Virus record (IMG/VR): IMGVR_UViG_2547132272_000014
Source: a virus
Lineage: Duplodnaviria; Heunggongvirae; Uroviricota; Caudoviricetes
DNA: 20,767 nucleotides
Direction: 5' to 3' (one strand)
The position numbers were made by a program, and so were the translations under genes. The notes below the pieces were generated by a model, which searched no databases, was not told the origin of the DNA, and saw only the letters and a program-made list of their open reading frames with translations. Positions 1 to 8,959 of this stretch are shown one piece after another. Every line of letters starts with the position of its first letter. The first letter of the stretch is position 1.

Positions 1-354
1 CACTAAATCAGTAAGTTGGCAGCATCACCAGCAAATAATGCTTATAAAAATCAACTCAATAGATTGTTTTGTTTTTTTTGTTCAGAAAAATAATGTGGGT
101 GGCGTAAGTTTTATATTGAATATCTGGCAGAGTGAAAATTTGAGATTTTTATAAAAAATAATTCAAATAACACCAGCGATAATTGCAGTGAAAGTTATTA
201 ACCAGTCGGACAAGAGTGGTTCGCATTAAGAACAATACAAATATATTCTCTTTTCCTGTGGATTTTTCCTAACCGCTGAACTACTTATTAATCAACCCTG
301 ATGATGACTGTTAGCTTCAGGGCATTAGCCAATCACACATTATGGAGTTCACCT

Positions 355-630
355 ATGAAAACTGGAACTAAGCTCTTAGTTGGTGCGTTAGCTTTTGTTG
401 TCACAAACGTCTATGCCGCTGAATTGATGACTAAAGCGGAATTTGAAAAGGTTGAATCGCAATATGAAAAAATAGGTGATATTTCAACAAGTAATGAAAT
501 GTCGACTGCAGATGCAAAAGAAGATTTAATCAAAAAAGCGGATGAAAAAGGTGCTGATGTGTTGGTACTGACCTCCGGTCAGACTGACAATAAGATCCAC
601 GGCACGGCAAATATTTATAAGAAGAAGTAA
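355..630 (+). CDS. yahO: YahO-like small periplasmic protein (DUF1471 / BhsA-McbA family), 91 aa
   Basis: ORF track 301..630 trimmed to ATG 355, which has GGAG at 343-346; N-terminus [23 protein letters not shown] is a typical Sec signal peptide; sequence recognised from memory as E. coli YahO; position upstream of prpR fits the known gene order. Confidence 0.7.
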
Positions 631-702
631 TTCTGAAGCCATGTAAATATGCCCGATGTGCACGTCTATCGGTGAATGCAATATATTGAAATTCATGATT
701 TT

Positions 703-736
703 GTAGGCCGGATAGGGGGTCACACCGCATCCGGCA
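703..736. repeat. REP (repetitive extragenic palindromic) element between yahO and prpR
   Basis: gtaggccggatagggggtcacaccgcatccggca matches the enterobacterial REP consensus (GCCGGATA...GCATCCGGC) with internal dyad symmetry. Confidence 0.5.
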
Positions 737-738
737 AT

Positions 739-2325
739 TTAATTTTTCAGCCGCCGCCAGAACGTCGTTCGGCTGATGCCTAAATAATTCGCCGCTGCTG
801 TTTTATCACCATTAAATTTCTCCAGTGCCTGTTGGGGTGTCAGCAAGGGAGAGGCGGTAATTTTCGCCGACTCGTGGGCTAATTCCGGCAGTAGCCGTTG
901 CAAAAACTGCGGCGTTAAATCCGGCGTCGGTTCCACACTTAAAAATAGCGCCAGTCGCTCCATCATATTGCGGAGTTCACGAATATTTCCCGGCCACTCA
1001 TAGTGCAATAAAACCACCTGGCAGGTATTTAACCCCTCGCGTAACGCAGCAGAAAATGGGGCGGAGAGCGCCGCCAGAGACACTTTTAAAAAGCTTTCCG
1101 CCAACGGCAGAATATCCGCACCCCGCTCGCGCAGTGGCGGCAATTGCAGACGTAAAATACTCAGTCGATAAAACAGATCACGGCGAAAACGTCCTTGCTG
1201 CATATCCTCTTCCAGATTGCAGTGGGTGGCGCTGATGACCCGCACATTTACCGGAACAGGCTGATGTCCGCCGACGCGAGTGACCTCTTTTTCTTCCAGC
1301 ACCCGCAGCAGGCGAGTCTGCAAAGGCAGCGGCATTTCGCCAATTTCATCAAGAAACAGCGTGCCGCCGTGGGCAATTTCGAACAGCCCGGCGCGACCTC
1401 CGCGTCGCGAGCCGGTAAATGCCCCTTCCTCATAGCCAAATAGCTCCGCTTCCAGCAATGATTCGGCAATCGCTCCGCAGTTAACGGCAACAAACGGATG
1501 TGATTTTTTACCGTGGCGAGCGTCATGACAGGCAAAGTATTCCCGATGTATCGCCTGAGCCGCCAGCTCTTTACCGGTTCCCGTTTCTCCCTGAATCAGC
1601 ACCGCCGCACTGGATCGGGCATAGAGCAAAATGGTTTGCCGCACTTGTTCCATCTGTGGCGATTGACCAAGCATATCGCTCAAAACGTAACGAGTACGCA
1701 GGGCGTTGCGGGTAGTGTTCTGGGCGTTATGCCTTAGAGACATGCGTGTCATATCCAGCGCATCGCTGAACGCCTGGCGCACGGTGGCAGCGGAATAGAT
1801 AAAAATTCCGGTCATTCCGGCTTCTTCTGCCAGATCGGTAATCAGCCCGGCACCGACCACGGCTTCGGTGCCGCTAGCTTTTAGCTCGTTAATCTGCCCG
1901 CGTGCGTCTTCTTCGGTGATGTAACTACGTTGGTCGAGACGCAGATTAAAGGTTTTTTGAAACGCCACCAGTGCCGGAATGGTTTCCTGATAAGTAACGA
2001 CGCCAATCGATGAGGTAAGTTTTCCGGCTTTTGCCAGCGCCTGTAACACATCAAAGCCGCTCGGTTTAATCAAAATAACGGGCACTGACAGGCGGCTTTT
2101 CAGGTACGCGCCGTTAGAGCCAGCGGCGATGATAGCGTCGCAGCGTTCACTTGCCAGTTTTTTGCGGATGTAGGCCACCGCTTTTTCAAAGCCAAGCTGG
2201 ATAGGCGTTATGTTCGCCAGGTGATTAAACTCAAGGCTGATATCGCGAAACAGTTCGAACAAGCGCGTCACTGATACCGTCCAAAAAATGGGTTTATCGT
2301 CGTTCAGCCGTGGTGGATGTGCCAT
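739..2325 (-). CDS. prpR: Propionate catabolism operon regulator PrpR, sigma54-dependent enhancer-binding protein, 528 aa
   Basis: ORF track 739..2394 trimmed to ATG at 2325 (protein [12 protein letters not shown]...); AAA+ sigma54-interaction signatures GETGTGKE (Walker A) and GAFTG, C-terminal HTH; divergent from prpB. Confidence 0.85.
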
Positions 2326-2501
2326 AGCACCCCAAAGAATTAAGAAACCGAATATTGGGTTTAGTCTTGTTTCATAATTGTTGCAATGAAACACGGTGAA
2401 ACATTGCCTGAAACGTTAACTGAAACGCATATTTGCAGATTAAGTAAGAGTGTTTTTGTTAACAAATTGAAATGTATTGGTTATTTTGAGTTTATCAATT
2501 G

Positions 2502-2517
2502 TGGCATAGCCCTTGCT
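2502..2517 (+). promoter_or_regulatory. sigma54 (RpoN) -24/-12 promoter for prpB-prpC
   Basis: TGGCATAGCCCTTGCT fits TGGCAC-N5-TTGCW (GG at 2503-2504, GC at 2515-2516); lies about 50 bp upstream of the prpB start and next to the divergent sigma54 activator gene prpR. Confidence 0.7.
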
Positions 2518-2563
2518 TTGTGTTTATCAACGAAAATAACAAGTTGATAACAAAGGATGGGCT

Positions 2564-3454
2564 ATGTCTCTACACTCTCCAGGTAAAGCGTTTCGCGCCG
2601 CACTCTCCAAAGAAACTCCGTTGCAAATTGTTGGCACCATTAACGCCAACCATGCGTTGTTGGCGCAGCGTGCCGGATATCAGGCGATTTATCTCTCCGG
2701 TGGTGGCGTGGCGGCAGGTTCGCTGGGGCTACCCGATCTCGGTATTTCTACCCTTGATGATGTGCTGACCGATATTCGGCGTATCACCGACGTTTGCTCG
2801 CTGCCGCTGCTGGTTGATGCCGATATCGGCTTTGGCTCTTCGGCCTTTAACGTGGCGCGTACTGTGAAATCGATGATTAAAGCCGGTGCGGCAGGATTGC
2901 ATATTGAAGATCAGATCGGCGCGAAACGCTGCGGTCATCGTCCGAACAAAGCGATCGTCTCGAAAGAGGAGATGGTTGATCGGATCCGCGCGGCGGTGGA
3001 TGCGAAAACCGATCCTGATTTTGTGATCATGGCGCGCACCGATGCGCTGGCAGTGGAAGGTCTGGACGGCGCGATCGAACGCGCGCGAGCCTATGTTGAA
3101 GCCGGTGCCGAGATGCTGTTCCCGGAGGCGATTACTGAACTCGCCATGTACCGCCAGTTTGCCGATGCGGTGCAGGTGCCAATCCTCGCCAACATTACCG
3201 AATTTGGCGCCACGCCCCTGTTCACCACCGATGAATTACGCAGCGCCCATGTCGCAATGGCGCTGTACCCGCTTTCAGCATTCCGCGCCATGAACCGCGC
3301 CGCTGAACATGTCTACAACATCCTGCGCCAGGAAGGCACGCAGAAAAGCGTGATCGACACCATGCAGACCCGTAACGAGTTGTACGAAAGCATCAACTAC
3401 TACCAGTACGAAGAGAAGCTCGACGACCTGTTTGCCCGTAGCCAGGCGAAATAA
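2564..3454 (+). CDS. prpB: 2-methylisocitrate lyase, 296 aa
   Basis: ORF 2564..3454 with AAGGATGG upstream; isocitrate lyase/PEP mutase family signatures (KRCGH catalytic loop, EDQ motif); recognised as E. coli PrpB. Confidence 0.9.
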
Positions 3455-3487
3455 ACAAACGTCTGGTGGTTGTATTCGACAACCGAT

Positions 3488-3574
3488 GCCTGATGCGCCG
3501 CTGACGCGACTTATCAGGCCTACGAGGTGTACTGAACTGTAGGTCGGATAAGACGCATGGCGTCGCATCCGACA
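3488..3574. repeat. Pair of inverted REP elements (BIME-like) in the prpB-prpC spacer
   Basis: gcctgatgcgccgctgacgcgacttatcaggcctac (3488-3523) and gtaggtcggataagacgcatggcgtcgcatccgaca (3538-3574) are REP-consensus sequences in opposite orientation. Confidence 0.5.
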
Positions 3575-3615
3575 ACAATCTCGACCCTACAAATGATAAC
3601 AATGACGAGGACAAC

Positions 3616-4650
3616 ATGAGCGACACAACGATCCTGCAAAACAGTACCCATGTCATTAAACCAAAAAAATCTGTGGCACTTTCTGGCGTTCCGGCGGGTA
3701 ACACCGCGCTTTGTACCGTAGGCAAAAGCGGCAACGACCTGCACTATCGCGGCTACGATATTCTCGATCTCGCAGAACATTGCGAATTTGAAGAAGTGGC
3801 GCATCTGCTGATCCACGGCAAACTGCCGACCCGTGACGAACTCGCCGCTTACAAAACGAAACTGAAAGCCCTGCGCGGTTTACCGGCTAACGTGCGTACC
3901 GTGCTGGAGGCTTTACCTGCGGCGTCGCACCCGATGGATGTTATGCGCACCGGCGTTTCCGCGCTCGGCTGCACGCTGCCGGAAAAAGAGGGGCACACCG
4001 TCTCCGGCGCGCGGGATATTGCCGACAAACTGTTGGCGTCGCTGAGTTCGATTCTTCTCTACTGGTATCACTACAGCCACAACGGCGAACGCATCCAGCC
4101 GGAAACCGATGACGACTCTATCGGCGGTCACTTCCTGCATCTGCTGCATGGTGAAAAGCCGTCGCAAAGTTGGGAAAAGGCGATGCAAATTTCGCTGGTG
4201 CTGTACGCCGAGCATGAGTTTAACGCCTCCACCTTTACCAGCCGGGTGATTGCGGGCACCGGCTCTGATATGTATTCAGCCATTATCGGCGCGATTGGTG
4301 CACTGCGCGGGCCGAAGCACGGCGGGGCGAATGAAGTGTCACTGGAGATCCAGCAACGCTACGAAACGCCGGACGAAGCCGAAGCGGATATCCGCAAGCG
4401 CGTGGAAAACAAAGAAGTGGTGATTGGTTTTGGCCATCCGGTTTATACCATCGCCGACCCGCGCCATCAGGTGATCAAGCGTGTGGCGAAGCAGCTCTCG
4501 CAGGAAGGCGGCTCGCTGAAGATGTACAACATTGCCGATCGCCTGGAAACGGTGATGTGGGAGAGCAAAAAGATGTTCCCCAATCTCGACTGGTTCTCCG
4601 CTGTTTCCTACAACATGATGGGCGTTCCCACCGAGATTGTGGGGTGGTGA
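3616..4650 (+). pseudogene. prpC: 2-methylcitrate synthase prpC, 3'-truncated by prophage insertion
   Basis: Translation matches PrpC (citrate synthase family) through ...[13 protein letters not shown]. As I recall it, intact PrpC continues MFTPLFVIARVTGW... for about 45 more residues; here the frame reads IVGW-stop, encoded by the first bases of the prophage end. Chromosome/prophage junction is at 4637/4638. Confidence 0.75.
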
Positions 4651-4800
4651 TCAATTCTGGGCGGAGTTCGTGCAGCCTGGTAGAACCTGCAAGCCTTGTG
4701 TGGCGCGGGGTGTGGTGATTTAGTGTGATTCTGGGCGGATTTGTGAGAAATGACCAAAAACGCTTTTTTTTGCGCTTTTTTCTGGGCGCTTTTGATCTGG
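4645..4800 (+). repeat. Left-end array of three direct repeats, candidate transposase-binding sites (analogous to Mu L1-L3)
   Basis: TTCTGGGCGG at 4655-4664 and 4729-4738, and TTCTGGGCGC at 4780-4789; the first two sit in longer matching contexts GGTGAT...ATTCTGGGCGGAnTTnGTG. Offsets of about 18, 92 and 143 bp from the terminus resemble the Mu attL layout. Confidence 0.5.
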
Positions 4801-4949
4801 TTCTGCTACAAACTTAACGGGTTTTAAATGCTTTTAAAAAGTGTTTTATCCTTGCCCGTTTTCCTCAATTTGTTCTCATCTGTTGTGTTCGGTTTTGTTG
4901 TGGTTATTGCTGATTAGCTAACAGCATACGCCCCGCCAAAACGAGGCGC

Positions 4950-5600
4950 TTATGCTGATTTCTTGTTTACAGGCTTCGTTTCTTGCTCCGGCGTGGCAAC
5001 GGTCTGACCACCTGGCGACCTAGCTCGTATATGAGATTCGATGCGGCGCAAAATCTCTTTGTCAATTTCTTCGTTACCATCTAATGCCATACATATGGCG
5101 TCTTTTAGCGATTCCCTGATGTTCAGGCTTCTGATGGCATTCTCCTGTTCGTCTAGGTCGTTGTAGGCCTGTTTCGCTTGCCTGGTGGGTTGTTGTAGGC
5201 GTTCCAGGACTCCTTTGATACCAATACAACAAAGCATATCAATAAGACGCTCTCTATCTTCTGGAGCGGCTCGTCTTAGTATTTCGTCAACAATACTTGT
5301 ATCGGGGCGGTTAACGTCTTCTGTAGTCACCCTTGATTTTTCTACCATTGGAACACTTCTGTTCTCACCGTAGACCAGCCATTCCAGTGATACATTCTCT
5401 AATTTTGCTATTGTAGCGACCACATTTAGGCCAGGTGTCGTGCCTTTTTCAAAGTAGTTATTTATGGTCGAGTACGGTAATCCCCAGTCTGAGGTGGCTT
5501 TACGCAGGCTCCTGGTGCCAATCAGTTGTTTGATTCTGTCTTGAATGCTTTCTTTTCTATCCTGAGAAAAGGAAAAATCATCAGCGATTTGTTTACTCAT
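4950..5600 (-). CDS. Prophage repressor candidate, N-terminal HTH (XRE/CI-like), 216 aa
   Basis: Minus-strand ORF divergent from ner; AGGA upstream of ATG 5600 on the minus strand; N-terminal segment LRKATSDWGLPYSTINNYFEKGTTPGLNVVATIAKLENVSLEWLVYGE looks like a CI/C2-type helix-turn-helix; no obvious S24 peptidase motif in the C-terminal half. Confidence 0.6.
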   Translation of the reverse strand: MSKQIADDFSFSQDRKESIQDRIKQLIGTRSLRKATSDWGLPYSTINNYFEKGTTPGLNVVATIAKLENVSLEWLVYGENRSVPMVEKSRVTTEDVNRPDTSIVDEILRRAAPEDRERLIDMLCCIGIKGVLERLQQPTRQAKQAYNDLDEQENAIRSLNIRESLKDAICMALDGNEEIDKEILRRIESHIRARSPGGQTVATPEQETKPVNKKSA

Positions 5601-5648
5601 TTTCTTTCCTTCTAACGTGTTGATTTACATGTGCTTTCTTCAAAAAGA

Positions 5649-5752
5649 CTTTCTTTTCACCAAAGAAAGAAAAGAAAGCTTGTAATTTTCTATTTGTGGA
5701 TCAATACTTATATCCGAAGGGATAACACGGCGGTGTTATCCGCACGGATAAC
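5649..5752. promoter_or_regulatory. Divergent repressor/ner control region with candidate operators
   Basis: Inverted repeat CTTTCTTTTC (5649-5658) / GAAAAGAAAG (5669-5678); palindrome GATAACAC-GGCG-GTGTTATC (5721-5740) plus a third GGATAAC half-site at 5746-5752; located between divergent regulatory genes. Confidence 0.4.
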
Positions 5753-5768
5753 TTTTAAGGGTAACCTA

Positions 5769-6005
5769 ATGATGGTTAGAAATGAAGTAATGAACAAAGA
5801 CTGGCACCGCGAGTACATCGTTGCCGCTGTGCACACCAAAGGTTTTACATTGCGTGAACTTTCTGAACGCGCTGGTCTAAAAAAAGACTCTTTAAAAAAT
5901 GCACTGTATCGCTCATGCCCTAAATATGAACGCATCATAGCCGATGCTATTGGTGTGGAACCTGCGGAGATCTGGCCAAGCCGGTATGCCAGTAAGGCGG
6001 CGTAA
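5769..6005 (+). CDS. ner: Ner-like DNA-binding protein (Mu Ner / Nlp family), 78 aa
   Basis: ORF track 5631..6005 trimmed to ATG 5769 (AAGGG at 5757-5761); sequence KDWHREYIVAAVHTKGFTLRELSERAGL...IIADAIGVEPAEIWPSRY resembles Mu Ner (…DWHRADVIAGLKKRKLSLSALSRQFG…IWPSRY, from memory). Confidence 0.75.
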   Translation: MMVRNEVMNKDWHREYIVAAVHTKGFTLRELSERAGLKKDSLKNALYRSCPKYERIIADAIGVEPAEIWPSRYASKAA

Positions 6006-8047
6006 TGTTTTATTCAGCCAATGAGCTGGCCGGTCTTCCTGGTTTGCCCGGTACAGTTCAGGGGGTGCGCTGGACGCTCAATCGGATCACAGAGACGCAC
6101 CCAGAATGGAAGCGCAAGCGCGAAGGCACCAAAGCATTCGAGTATCACATCGACTGCCTGCCCGCTGAAGCGCAGAAAGTTTTACGTAAGCGCCTGACTC
6201 ATCAGGTCCTGGAAGATGCACAACTGCCCGCCGTAGTTGAGCAGAAAGCAGTTAAAAACGTCGCCGTTCGCGATGAACTGGAGGTGATGGTCAAATGCCC
6301 GGAGCTGGCATTACGCGAAGTCCAGTCACTGACCGACAAGCAAAAGGCCATCGCTGATGCGCGGATATTGCTGGCTACTGAAGTGCATAAGCTGCGCGAG
6401 TATGCCGGAATGACCAGGAAGGCCGCTTTAAAGCACATCGTTGATGGTGTGCGCATGGGGGCGTTACCTGACCGCATTATCGAAGCAGCGAATACTGCAA
6501 ATGCACGTCAGGGAAAGCGAACCGGTGTCAGCACCGGCAGCCTGGATAGCTGGTACTCCAGCTGGGTGATGGCGCGCGGTGATGCCAATCAGTTACTGGC
6601 GTTACTGGCTCCCGGTCATCATAAGGGAACACCGTGGGAGCAGGTCTGGTGGTTGAGCGATTTCTTTATGTTCTATCGCTCATGGAAGCGCCCGACTGTT
6701 GAATATGCGTATCGTGAGTTTTCAGCCTGGTGGCATGAAAAACACGCGAATGATGCGGGAATGCTGGCGGCACTGCCTTCAGTTCACGCAGTAAGACGGG
6801 TGTTAAGCAGCGTCCCGGTGATTGTTAAAGAGCGTTTCCGCTCCACCGGTTCAGCCTGGCGTTCGCTCAATCCCTTTGTGCGGCGCGACTGGACATCATT
6901 ACCGGTTAATGCGGTATGGGTCGGGGATGGTCACTGTATGAAAATGACCGCGTTTAACCCCCTGACCGGCAATATTTTCCGGCCAGAAGTGACGCTGGTT
7001 ATGGATGCGGGGCAACGCTTTGTTGTGGGCTGGTCACTGTCCCTGTCGGAGAACGTGATAGCTGTTGCTGATGCGTTGCGTTACGGCATGGCACAGCACG
7101 GGATACCGCTGATTTATTACTCCGATAACGGGGGCGGCGAAAAAAACCGGGTGCTTGATGCCGATATTACCGGGATTCTGCCCCGTCTGGGTGTGGAACA
7201 TCACACGGGGATACCAGGTAACCCGCAGGGGCGCGGGGTGATTGAACGGGCAAACAAAGGAATACCCAAAGACGTGGCTCTGAGTTTCCAGACGTACTGC
7301 GCAAGGGATGCAGACAAGGAAACCGTAATGATGCAGCAACGGATTATGCAGTCAGCCATTAAGGCCACCCACAAAGGGAAAGAGCTGACAAAACGGCAGG
7401 TTAAGGCGAGGGATGAAATCCCTACCTTTGAGCAACTGATGGCAGCCATAGAGCTGGAGGTCAGACGCTATAACAACCGGCCACACAGCAGCCTTCCTCG
7501 CAAAGAGGATGGCGAATATTACAGCCCGGCAGCGTATCGCCGGAAACTGATAAAAGAGCAAAAGGCTGAAATCGACATGCTGTCGCCGGAAGAACTGCAT
7601 GAAATGTTCAGACCGGAAGTGACGCGCAAAACATTTCGCGGGGAAATTCAGTTATTCAACAATATTTATTACTCATATGAGCTGGCCGCAGAGCACGGGA
7701 ATGAAGTCAGGGTCAGTTACGATATTCATGATGCAAACAGCGTCATTGTCCGGCGGGCTGATGGCTCTTATATCTGCGATGCCATCTGGAACGGTAACAA
7801 GGTTGATGCCTTCGCTAAACCAGTTATCGAGCAAAAACTGGAGAAACGCGTCAGGGGCCGCATTGCACGGGCCACGCAGAAAATCGAAGAAGCTAAACGC
7901 GAGCTTACCCCGGCCATTACGCAGAAGCCTGACTTTAATCTGGGATATGGACTGGAGCGCCCGGAGAAAAAGGAAAAAGAAGAACTTTATTTATTCGCAT
8001 CTGAACGCGAACGCAATTTAAAGAAAAACGGCACAAACAACCGTTAA
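6005..8047 (+). CDS. MuA-like DDE transposase, 680 aa
   Basis: Start overlaps the ner stop (TAATG); N-terminus ANELAGLPGLP resembles the MuA N-terminus (ANLPGLPKT); candidate DDE residues in WVGDGH, YYSDNGG and GRGVIER; size and position match Mu A. Confidence 0.85.
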   Translation: MFYSANELAGLPGLPGTVQGVRWTLNRITETHPEWKRKREGTKAFEYHIDCLPAEAQKVLRKRLTHQVLEDAQLPAVVEQKAVKNVAVRDELEVMVKCPELALREVQSLTDKQKAIADARILLATEVHKLREYAGMTRKAALKHIVDGVRMGALPDRIIEAANTANARQGKRTGVSTGSLDSWYSSWVMARGDANQLLALLAPGHHKGTPWEQVWWLSDFFMFYRSWKRPTVEYAYREFSAWWHEKHANDAGMLAALPSVHAVRRVLSSVPVIVKERFRSTGSAWRSLNPFVRRDWTSLPVNAVWVGDGHCMKMTAFNPLTGNIFRPEVTLVMDAGQRFVVGWSLSLSENVIAVADALRYGMAQHGIPLIYYSDNGGGEKNRVLDADITGILPRLGVEHHTGIPGNPQGRGVIERANKGIPKDVALSFQTYCARDADKETVMMQQRIMQSAIKATHKGKELTKRQVKARDEIPTFEQLMAAIELEVRRYNNRPHSSLPRKEDGEYYSPAAYRRKLIKEQKAEIDMLSPEELHEMFRPEVTRKTFRGEIQLFNNIYYSYELAAEHGNEVRVSYDIHDANSVIVRRADGSYICDAIWNGNKVDAFAKPVIEQKLEKRVRGRIARATQKIEEAKRELTPAITQKPDFNLGYGLERPEKKEKEELYLFASERERNLKKNGTNNR

Positions 8048-8065: not shown

Positions 8066-8959
8066 ATGAGTTTAATTACGCAATTAAATGACGTAATGGC
8101 CCGTCGCGGCTATACGCAAACCCACGTCGCCCGTGCTATTGGTCGTAGCAGCGCCGTTATCAACCAGTATTTACAGGGTAAATATCAGGGCGATATGGCT
8201 GATATTGAAGAACGCATTTTCGCCTTTGTGACCCGTGAGCGGGAAAAGGAAAACAGCCGCCGTATTAAAGCGAAATTTGTTGCCACCGGTATGGCTGCCA
8301 AAGGACTGGAGGTGTTGGCCTATGCTCACCTGGAATGTGAAATCTGCGTACTGTATGGCGCGGCAGGTCTTGGCAAAACAATGATTCTGCGTGAATACGC
8401 CGCCAGAAACCGGGATGCGGTCCTGATTGAAGCCGACCCGGGCTATACAGCCAGAACACTGCTTGAGGAGCTGTGCCGCCAGCTGGGGGTAAAAGTTCGC
8501 GGCAATATCCACGAACTGATTGATGCATGTGTGCGAGAACTGCGTGATTCCGGTCGCCTGCTGATGGTGGACGAGGCTGAACTGCTCCCCTATCGCGCAC
8601 TGGAGGTTCTGCGCCGTCTGCATGACAAAGCGGGTATCGGGATTGTCCTGGCGGGTATGCCACGCCTTCTGATTAACCTCAAGGGACGTCGCGGTGAGTT
8701 CGCCCAGTTATACAGCCGTGTGGCGCTGGCGCTTAACCTGGGCGATACGCTGGCGCAGGAAGATTTTAACCAGATAGCCACCGGGCTGATGCCGGAAGCA
8801 GCAGAACCGGAAATCAGCGAGGCGCTTTACGTACGCTCGCTGGGTAATGCCCGCCGCCTCTTCAAACTGGCGCGCGGTGTGTACCGGATTTGTGATATCA
8901 GCGATGCACCGGTCAGTGTGCAGGCCATTGATAAATTCGCAGAAATGTTAATTCACTGA
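8066..8959 (+). CDS. MuB-like AAA+ ATPase (transposition target DNA activator), 297 aa
   Basis: N-terminal HTH-like segment, Walker A GAAGLGKT, Walker B-like LLMVDEAE; immediately downstream of the transposase as in Mu. Confidence 0.75.
   Translation: MSLITQLNDVMARRGYTQTHVARAIGRSSAVINQYLQGKYQGDMADIEERIFAFVTREREKENSRRIKAKFVATGMAAKGLEVLAYAHLECEICVLYGAAGLGKTMILREYAARNRDAVLIEADPGYTARTLLEELCRQLGVKVRGNIHELIDACVRELRDSGRLLMVDEAELLPYRALEVLRRLHDKAGIGIVLAGMPRLLINLKGRRGEFAQLYSRVALALNLGDTLAQEDFNQIATGLMPEAAEPEISEALYVRSLGNARRLFKLARGVYRICDISDAPVSVQAIDKFAEMLIH

Follow-up and report, generated by a model that had tools for sequence, protein, structure and literature searches.

Positions 4638 to 4801 of the DNA analyzed here (a stretch of 20,767 nucleotides, referred to as the window) very likely represent a Mu-type attL (probability of approx. 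0.9), in which three direct copies of TTCTGGGCG would form the cores of L1, L2 and L3, i.e., of putative binding sites for the prophage's own transposase. Repeats of this kind are found at each end of the element, mirrored and with the first copy equidistant from the respective terminus (the right end being read from other copies of the prophage), and the left end adjoins genes for a MuA-family DDE transposase and a MuB-like AAA+ ATPase, as identified by Pfam matches and, for the transposase, by a fold match to 4FCY.

The left boundary of the prophage was located by comparison with E. coli K-12. Window positions 1-4637 represent the E. coli prp locus, and the prophage extends from 4638 on. The Mu-like prophage interrupts prpC, encoding 2-methylcitrate synthase, after nucleotide 1022; the 5' part of this gene is located at 3616-4637 (plus strand; Pfam Citrate_synt, E = 1.4e-108). 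Up to 4637, the window has the same sequence as prpC of K-12; beyond this position, K-12 reads GTTCACACC and the window reads TGTGGGGTGGTGATCAATTCTGGGCGG. The prophage starts with the heptamer TGTGGGG (4638-4644, plus strand), which is conserved in the lineage and provides the 5'-TG end. TG...CA termini were found at the host junctions of five full-length E. coli copies (L001-L004 and L006); for the window, the TG at 4638 was identified against the empty prpC of K-12. Among 11 aligned left ends from elements with 45-91% transposase identity, GTGGGG (element positions 2-7) is invariant, with T1 of the left terminus falling outside the scoring due to an offset in sequence cutting.

The 313 bases from 4638 onward are present in 49 of 5426 complete E. 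coli genomes and, among the matches listed, prophage homology starts exactly at 4638 (query base 1). In other strains, copies of the prophage adjoin eutC (EPEC E2348/69), aslB, mhpT, ypdF, yfcC, phnJ and the yeiP/yeiQ interval, and some E. coli copies are inserted inside other prophages. Insertion at this many unrelated loci represents transposition, not site-specific integration; an insertion of the prophage in prpC was absent from all 5426 complete E. coli genomes searched. Moreover, some E. coli copies match query bases 1-164 only (94-96%) and carry a different mosaic beyond, and these mosaics delimit a conserved left-end block of 164 bp (attL; 4638-4801, plus strand), which holds all three sites. 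Overall, the comparison with K-12 prpC and the E. coli copies bear out the earlier note on this DNA, which had placed a TG-ended prophage left end at 4638.

Within attL, TTCTGGGCGG occurs at 4655-4664 and 4729-4738 and TTCTGGGCGC occurs at 4780-4789, all on the plus strand. The core TTCTGGGCG is thus located at 4655-4663 in L1 (element positions 18-26), at 4729-4737 in L2 (element positions 92-100; 74 bp after L1) and at 4780-4788 in L3 (element positions 143-151; 51 bp after L2), each on the plus strand. As the element begins at 4638, the motifs start at element positions 18, 92 and 143; both their coordinates and their distances of roughly 18, 92 and 143 bp from the terminus, as given in the earlier note, are exact in the sequence. 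None of the E. coli copies deviates in the cores, while the positions that flank them vary. No further copy of the core TTCTGGGC was found in the operator region or in the rest of the 16 kb of prophage in the window. A fourth exact copy of TTCTGGGCG is located at 1718-1726, inside the chromosomal prpR coding region, and was taken as a chance occurrence.

The window stops inside the prophage, and the right end was read from six full-length E. coli copies (L001-L006; 34.6-36.3 kb). The copies that supplied these data are 97-99% identical to the window at the left end; the three genomes with left ends nearest to that of the window (99.0%) have exactly this right end, and the precise right end was found in 17 genomes by megablast. 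Read inward from the terminus, the right end of L001-L006 is TGTAACTTCGCGTTTTT TTCTGGGC TAATTGGCGCACAA TTCTGGGC GGAGAGAGCGCAACCAAAAA GCCCAGAA TTGG. It contains TTCTGGGC in direct orientation at right-end positions 18 (R1) and 40 (R2), with N14 between these two cores, and in inverted orientation (GCCCAGAA) at positions 68-75 (R3). The L1 and R1 cores share the same start, i.e., position 18 from their respective termini. Inverted copies of the motif at the right prophage end, which the earlier note had suggested looking for, were hence present in all six full-length copies. In L003-like copies, the right end has diverged and all three cores are kept. Similarity among E. coli mosaics ends at approx. 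base 164 on the left (several genomes) and at approx. base 95 on the right (L003), and both breaks fall just beyond the last site of their end; conservation that ends past the last site is expected if the end blocks must stay matched to the transposase. Approx. 1 kb before the right end, L001-L006 also carry opposed tail-fibre and tail-fibre-assembly genes, which resemble the invertible G segment of Mu; no invertase gene is annotated beside these genes, and a 93-nt pseudogene is found there instead.

Target duplications of 4 bp, a feature that the earlier note does not mention, were found in five of five intact copies (L001-L004 and L006), with the sequences CTGA, CACT, AGAT, ATTC and GACA. 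When the copy at mhpT was compared to the empty K-12 site, the flanks overlapped by exactly 4 bp. A 5-bp duplication with shifted ends was also considered for L001-L004 and L006 and was rejected, as no matching 5-mers were obtained when each terminus was moved by one base. In Mu, the target duplication has 5 bp and represents a hallmark of this phage. For the Sp18-like phage in record LC727895, a 4-bp duplication was annotated by the depositors (L052, 1590-1593 and 40931-40934). On the basis of the other copies, AGAT at 4634-4637 is the predicted left copy of the duplication in the window, and the right junction of this insertion is predicted to read ...AATTAGCCCAGAAAAAAACGCGAAGTTACA / AGAT / GTTCACACCACTG, with prpC resuming. 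The remaining full-length copy, L005 (NZ_OY754349.1), shows no target duplication and has the right terminus GTTACT, not GTTACA (junction near position 35,000 of the locus); its host genes are a truncated phnJ followed by a truncated ABC ATPase gene, and its right junction is suggestive of a deletion next to the right end.

The genes next to attL are those of a Mu-like early region. The leftmost gene encodes a repressor of 216 aa with a CI-type helix-turn-helix (4950-5600, minus strand; Pfam Phage_CI_repr, E = 4e-6) and occupies the same place as the c gene of Mu. It is followed by a divergent early control region (5601-5768), characterized by several CTTTCTTTTC and GAAAGAAAAG repeats and by a GGATAAC palindrome (GGATAACAC...GTGTTATCC), with these elements being located within 5547-5679 and 5711-5750; judged by position alone, they are candidate operators or a candidate transposition enhancer. 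A Ner-like small DNA-binding protein of 78 aa is encoded at 5769-6005 (plus strand; Pfam HTH_35, E = 3e-25). Its start was set at the ATG at 5769; the mechanical ORF call runs from 5631, and homologues are annotated as 237-nt genes. The MuA-family DDE transposase of 680 aa (6005-8047, plus strand; Pfam HTH_Tnp_Mu_1, rve and Mu-transpos_C) is followed by a MuB-like AAA+ ATPase of 297 aa, the putative target-DNA activator (8066-8959, plus strand; Pfam AAA_22 and TniB), which is positioned as the B gene of Mu.

The transposase aligns end to end with MuA (21% identity over 616 columns); no Pfam match to the Mu I-gamma subdomain or to the Mu-specific core model (DDE_2) was found in this protein. 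A moderately confident AlphaFold2 model (pLDDT 72.6, pTM 0.41) predicts a winged helix (residues 1-70), helical domains (88-165 and 177-290), an RNase-H-like core and a beta-barrel. The best match of this model among solved structures is MuA in the Mu transpososome (4FCY; E = 9e-16, approx. 560-580 aligned columns). The next-best matches are TnsB of Tn7 and CAST elements, which are transposons, not phages. Tn7 and CAST elements likewise have multiple transposase sites, which are spaced out at one end and tightly packed at the opposite end; the end sequences of these elements are not known to be related to those found here, and the target duplication of Tn7 has 5 bp.

For comparison with Mu, the 22-bp sequence TGNTTCAYTNNAARYRCGAAAR, which we take to be the MuA consensus and which recovers the Mu sites, was used to scan Mu's own ends, the ends of the prophage in the window and shuffled sequence. 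In Mu, the scan identified L1 (6-27), L3 (151-172), R1 (6-27), R2 (28-49) and an inverted R3 (56-77), with 0 to 4 mismatches. The best matches in the prophage studied here, on the other hand, differed from the consensus at 7 positions (left end) and at 8 positions (right end), which equals the median for shuffled sequence. The two phages have in common the TG...CA termini, three sites per end, a long spacer that isolates L1 from L2 and L3, an R1-R2 distance of 22 bp, an inverted R3 and the gene order repressor, Ner-like protein, transposase and ATPase. Conversely, the prophage differs from Mu in the spacing between L1 and L2 (74 bp as compared to approx. 105 bp in Mu), in the core TTCTGGGC, which starts at position 18, in end sequences that are unrelated to those of Mu, in the length of the target duplication (4 as compared to 5 bp) and in the repressor, which is of the CI type and not of the Mu c type. 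The core, at positions 18-25, is also located farther from the terminus than TTCA, which is conserved in the Mu site at 9-12. Compared to the genus Muvirus (Mu, D108 and SfMu), the prophage lacks the match to the consensus, the 5-bp duplication and a close relationship of transposase and DNA.

These comparisons, which gave three sites per end, a 22-bp R1-R2 distance, an inverted R3 and a match to the Mu consensus no better than that of shuffled sequence, agree with the earlier note in that the layout resembles L1/L2/L3 of the Mu attL and in that the motif differs from the Mu consensus. The note had further suggested that the transposase specificity is probably distinct, and this suggestion is supported by the low identity to MuA and by the finding of other cores at the same offset in other lineages, both of which point to a putative recognition sequence of its own.

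A transposase scan using one genome per species yielded 40 loci with 26-61% identity, to which closer homologues from Yersinia (77%) and Salmonella (72% and 60%) were added by look-up. Elements from Yersinia, Salmonella, Serratia, Sodalis and Pantoea (transposase identity of 42-77%) have the terminus TGTGGGG and, at position 18, the core TTCTGGAC or TTCTGGAT, followed by two more cores approx. 73 and 51 bp farther in; these distances were 73-74 and 51-52 bp in relatives from Sodalis and Pantoea, and left ends from Yersinia and Salmonella align with the former spacing. Elements from Klebsiella, Raoultella and Limnobaculum (45-47%) have the terminus TGT and, at position 18, the core TTTGATAC (TTTGATAT in two), with spacings of 71 and 41-42 bp; Pluralibacter has the TTTGATAC core in common with this group, as judged from sequence for which the end was not read. 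Across genera, TTCTGG is invariant at the L1 core and mostly kept at L2 and L3, in elements with diverged spacers. A fixed scaffold with a core that changes by lineage is the pattern expected for a recognition site that co-evolves with its protein.

The TTCTGGAC-type relatives have A at core position 7 and sometimes T at position 8, whereas all six sites of the E. coli lineage carry G-C at these positions. Within single elements of the relatives, the last two core positions vary between sites (GGAC, GGAT), and the right end of one viral contig in IMG/VR (L083), the first 17 bases of which equal those of the right end described here, shows the three-site layout with GGAC in all cores. As far as these sequences indicate, G at core position 7 of the E. 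coli lineage could therefore represent tolerated variation rather than a change in specificity.

An IMG/VR scan for TTCTGGAC-N14-TTCTGGAC returned 35 matches, approximately the chance expectation for 16 specified bases; only the 11 matches with TGT exactly 17 bp upstream were kept as phage ends (L087 has TG, not TGT; the other 23 were dropped). Among the 13 left-type matches in IMG/VR, two (L095 and L096) were real ends, and the rest, which represented collagen-like or tandem repeats, were rejected. In Sodalis genome bins and Sodalis sp. SoCistrobi, the TTCTGGAC-type element was observed at at least ten loci in three assemblies (L020, L027, L031-L033, L035, L037, L038, L040-L042 and L046); some of these copies have the decayed cores TTCTAGAC, TTCTAAAC and TTTTAGAC. 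The many Sodalis copies together with the decayed cores suggest a burst of transposition, then decay.

Among isolated phages, the nearest transposase is that of Pseudomonas phage VW-6B (49%), which belongs to the TTCTGGAC-type relatives and the right end of which reads TGTAGCGCGGCGAAAAATTCTGGAC; this record has approx. 53 bp to the left of the first gene, too little for a left end to be read. The record of Klebsiella phage ST405-OXA48phi1.1 starts and stops at genes and shows no ends, and prophage copies in genomes were used in place of these two records. Phages of the Sp18 type (O157 Sakai Sp18; Mu_JNE122137 in LC727895, an Stx phage record) share with the prophage studied here the host species, the 4-bp duplication, a first core at position 18 of both ends and a second right core at position 40. 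They differ from it in the core, which is TTTGATAC (with a TGT terminus; left end 18, 113 and 165; right end 18, 40 and 75), in the third right core, which is direct and located at 75, and in the transposase, which is 44% identical. For Mu, FluMu, Pnm1 and Sp18, six putative transposase sites were reported earlier (PMC2628397), and Sp18 DNA is packaged into particles (PMC2669165). Haemophilus phage SuMu, a myovirus with a transposase identity of 40%, resembles the prophage described here in its GTGGGG terminus (TGTGGGGT) and in a repeated core at positions 18-19, with further copies at both ends, but has the core TTTTGCATAG; the paper on SuMu lists repeats without reading them as transposase sites (PMC3447690).

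No real nucleotide match emerged when both ends and the early region were compared to 50,697 phage records by megablast and blastn. The exception was a degenerate right-end-like sequence in SerU-LTIIb (KU052038.1, partial; L114, 1157-1238), which reads TGTAACTTCC-TTTTTCTGGGC...TTCTGGGT...GCCCAGAA with a shortened T run and adjoins side-tail-fibre genes and a tRNA-Ser pseudogene; this sequence probably represents what is left of a Mu-like end or of a recombined tail-fibre module. A literature search found no description of the ends of E2348/69-type prophages, a result which does not by itself prove that they are absent from the literature.

In the alignment of the 11 left ends, the invariant columns cluster at the terminus, at the three cores, at columns 54-71, at AATG (112-115) and at TTTTTTG (129-135). 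Columns 54-71 represent the block AAGCCTTGTGTGGCGCGG in the L1-L2 spacer (4691-4708, plus strand), which is invariant or near-invariant across genera, while the remaining spacer diverges. As a guess, this block could be a packaging signal, a site for a host bending protein or a weak extra site; at a comparable place (Mu positions 85-99), Mu has TGCAAGCCTGTAGTG. A second block, TTTTTTGC (4766-4773, plus strand; columns 129-135 invariant and C136 near-invariant), is located 7-14 bp upstream of the L3 core and probably provides the outer half of an L3 site made up of two parts. In L3, R1, R2 and R3, positions -8 to -6 with respect to the core read GCG.

Conserved blocks in the L1-L2 spacer and upstream of L3 could also serve a protein other than the transposase. 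The repeats themselves might bind the packaging machinery (as a pac site, given that the Mu packaging signal lies within the left end), the repressor, the Ner-like protein or a host bending protein. We consider this explanation improbable, as the same core is found three times at the right end, mirrored and with the first copy starting at position 18 from either terminus, and as the layout tracks the transposase lineage. Moreover, packaging requires a signal at a single end, and the repressor and the Ner-like protein should both act in the operator region at 5601-5768, where no copy of the core was found.

Apart from the three copies of the motif, the whole 20.7-kb window contains no 8-mer or 9-mer that occurs three times within 200 bp. 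Among 1000 windows simulated under a first-order Markov model, some 8-mer triple was found in 138 and some 9-mer triple in 9, so that the repeat, taken alone, is suggestive (P of approx. 0.01 for the 9-mer). The frequency of 8-mer triples in the simulations, along with the partly T-rich composition of the region, could be taken to indicate that the copies arose by chance or from the composition of a T-rich non-coding stretch and have no function. Such an origin has hardly any likelihood left when considering the rarity of 9-mer triples, the invariance of the cores in the E. coli copies, their recurrence at the right end and the retention of TTCTGG across genera despite diverged spacers. The motifs are decisive because they are located at the prophage boundary and recur at the other end, which goes beyond the repeat statistics. 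Finally, a conserved chromosomal or other mobile element beside prpC, an alternative which the earlier note had itself raised, is contradicted by the data to the point of being negligible, as K-12 prpC runs through the site without the repeats, the 164 bp always adjoin the same repressor and transposase genes at different loci (including yeiQ), the repeats move with the prophage and are absent from empty K-12 sites, and no point in favor of such an element was found.

Taking the repeats as transposase sites, a mechanism can be proposed by analogy with Mu, in which domain I-beta/gamma of MuA binds L1-L3 and R1-R3. Transposase subunits would bind L1-L3 and the three matching right-end sites, and the bound subunits would bring both ends together in a transpososome. 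Those subunits that occupy the terminal sites, the cores of which start 17 bp in, would set their active sites at the terminal TG/CA dinucleotides; the subunits would then nick at the termini and link the 3' ends to target DNA that the MuB-like ATPase has captured, with the two joins being made 4 bp apart in the E. coli lineage. We infer the contact between transposase and cores, the domain responsible for it and the order of assembly; binding is suggested by the position, the symmetry and the comparative conservation of the sites.

It is tempting to speculate, although we regard this as rather doubtful, that the E. coli lineage represents a natural specificity variant of a widespread Mu-like transposase that recognizes TTCTGGAY. 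The transposase of this lineage might be able to tell its own ends apart from those of co-resident Mu-like phages. If the lineage is such a variant, the specificity change together with the 4-bp stagger would make this a system orthogonal to MuA and a tractable case of co-evolution between a transposase and its ends.

Overall, this left end is an ordinary feature of Mu-type viruses, with the core motif and the 4-bp duplication as modest differences from Mu, and it leaves the understanding of Mu-type transposition unchanged. Among the 50,697 phage records of the searched collection, no isolated phage represents this E. coli prophage family. The data provide exact ends for a Mu-like prophage family that is found in approx. 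1% of complete E. coli genomes, including the reference strain EPEC E2348/69, i.e., TGTGGGG on the left and GTTACA on the right, with an attL of 164 bp, an attR of approx. 95 bp and a 4-bp duplication. They also describe a conserved scaffold (terminus, core at position 18 and an R1-R2 distance of 22 bp) in which the recognition cores are swapped between TTCTGGGC, TTCTGGAY, TTTGATAC and TTTTGCAT; these core swaps are useful for studying the co-evolution of transposases and their ends and for building MuA-like tools that do not cross-react.
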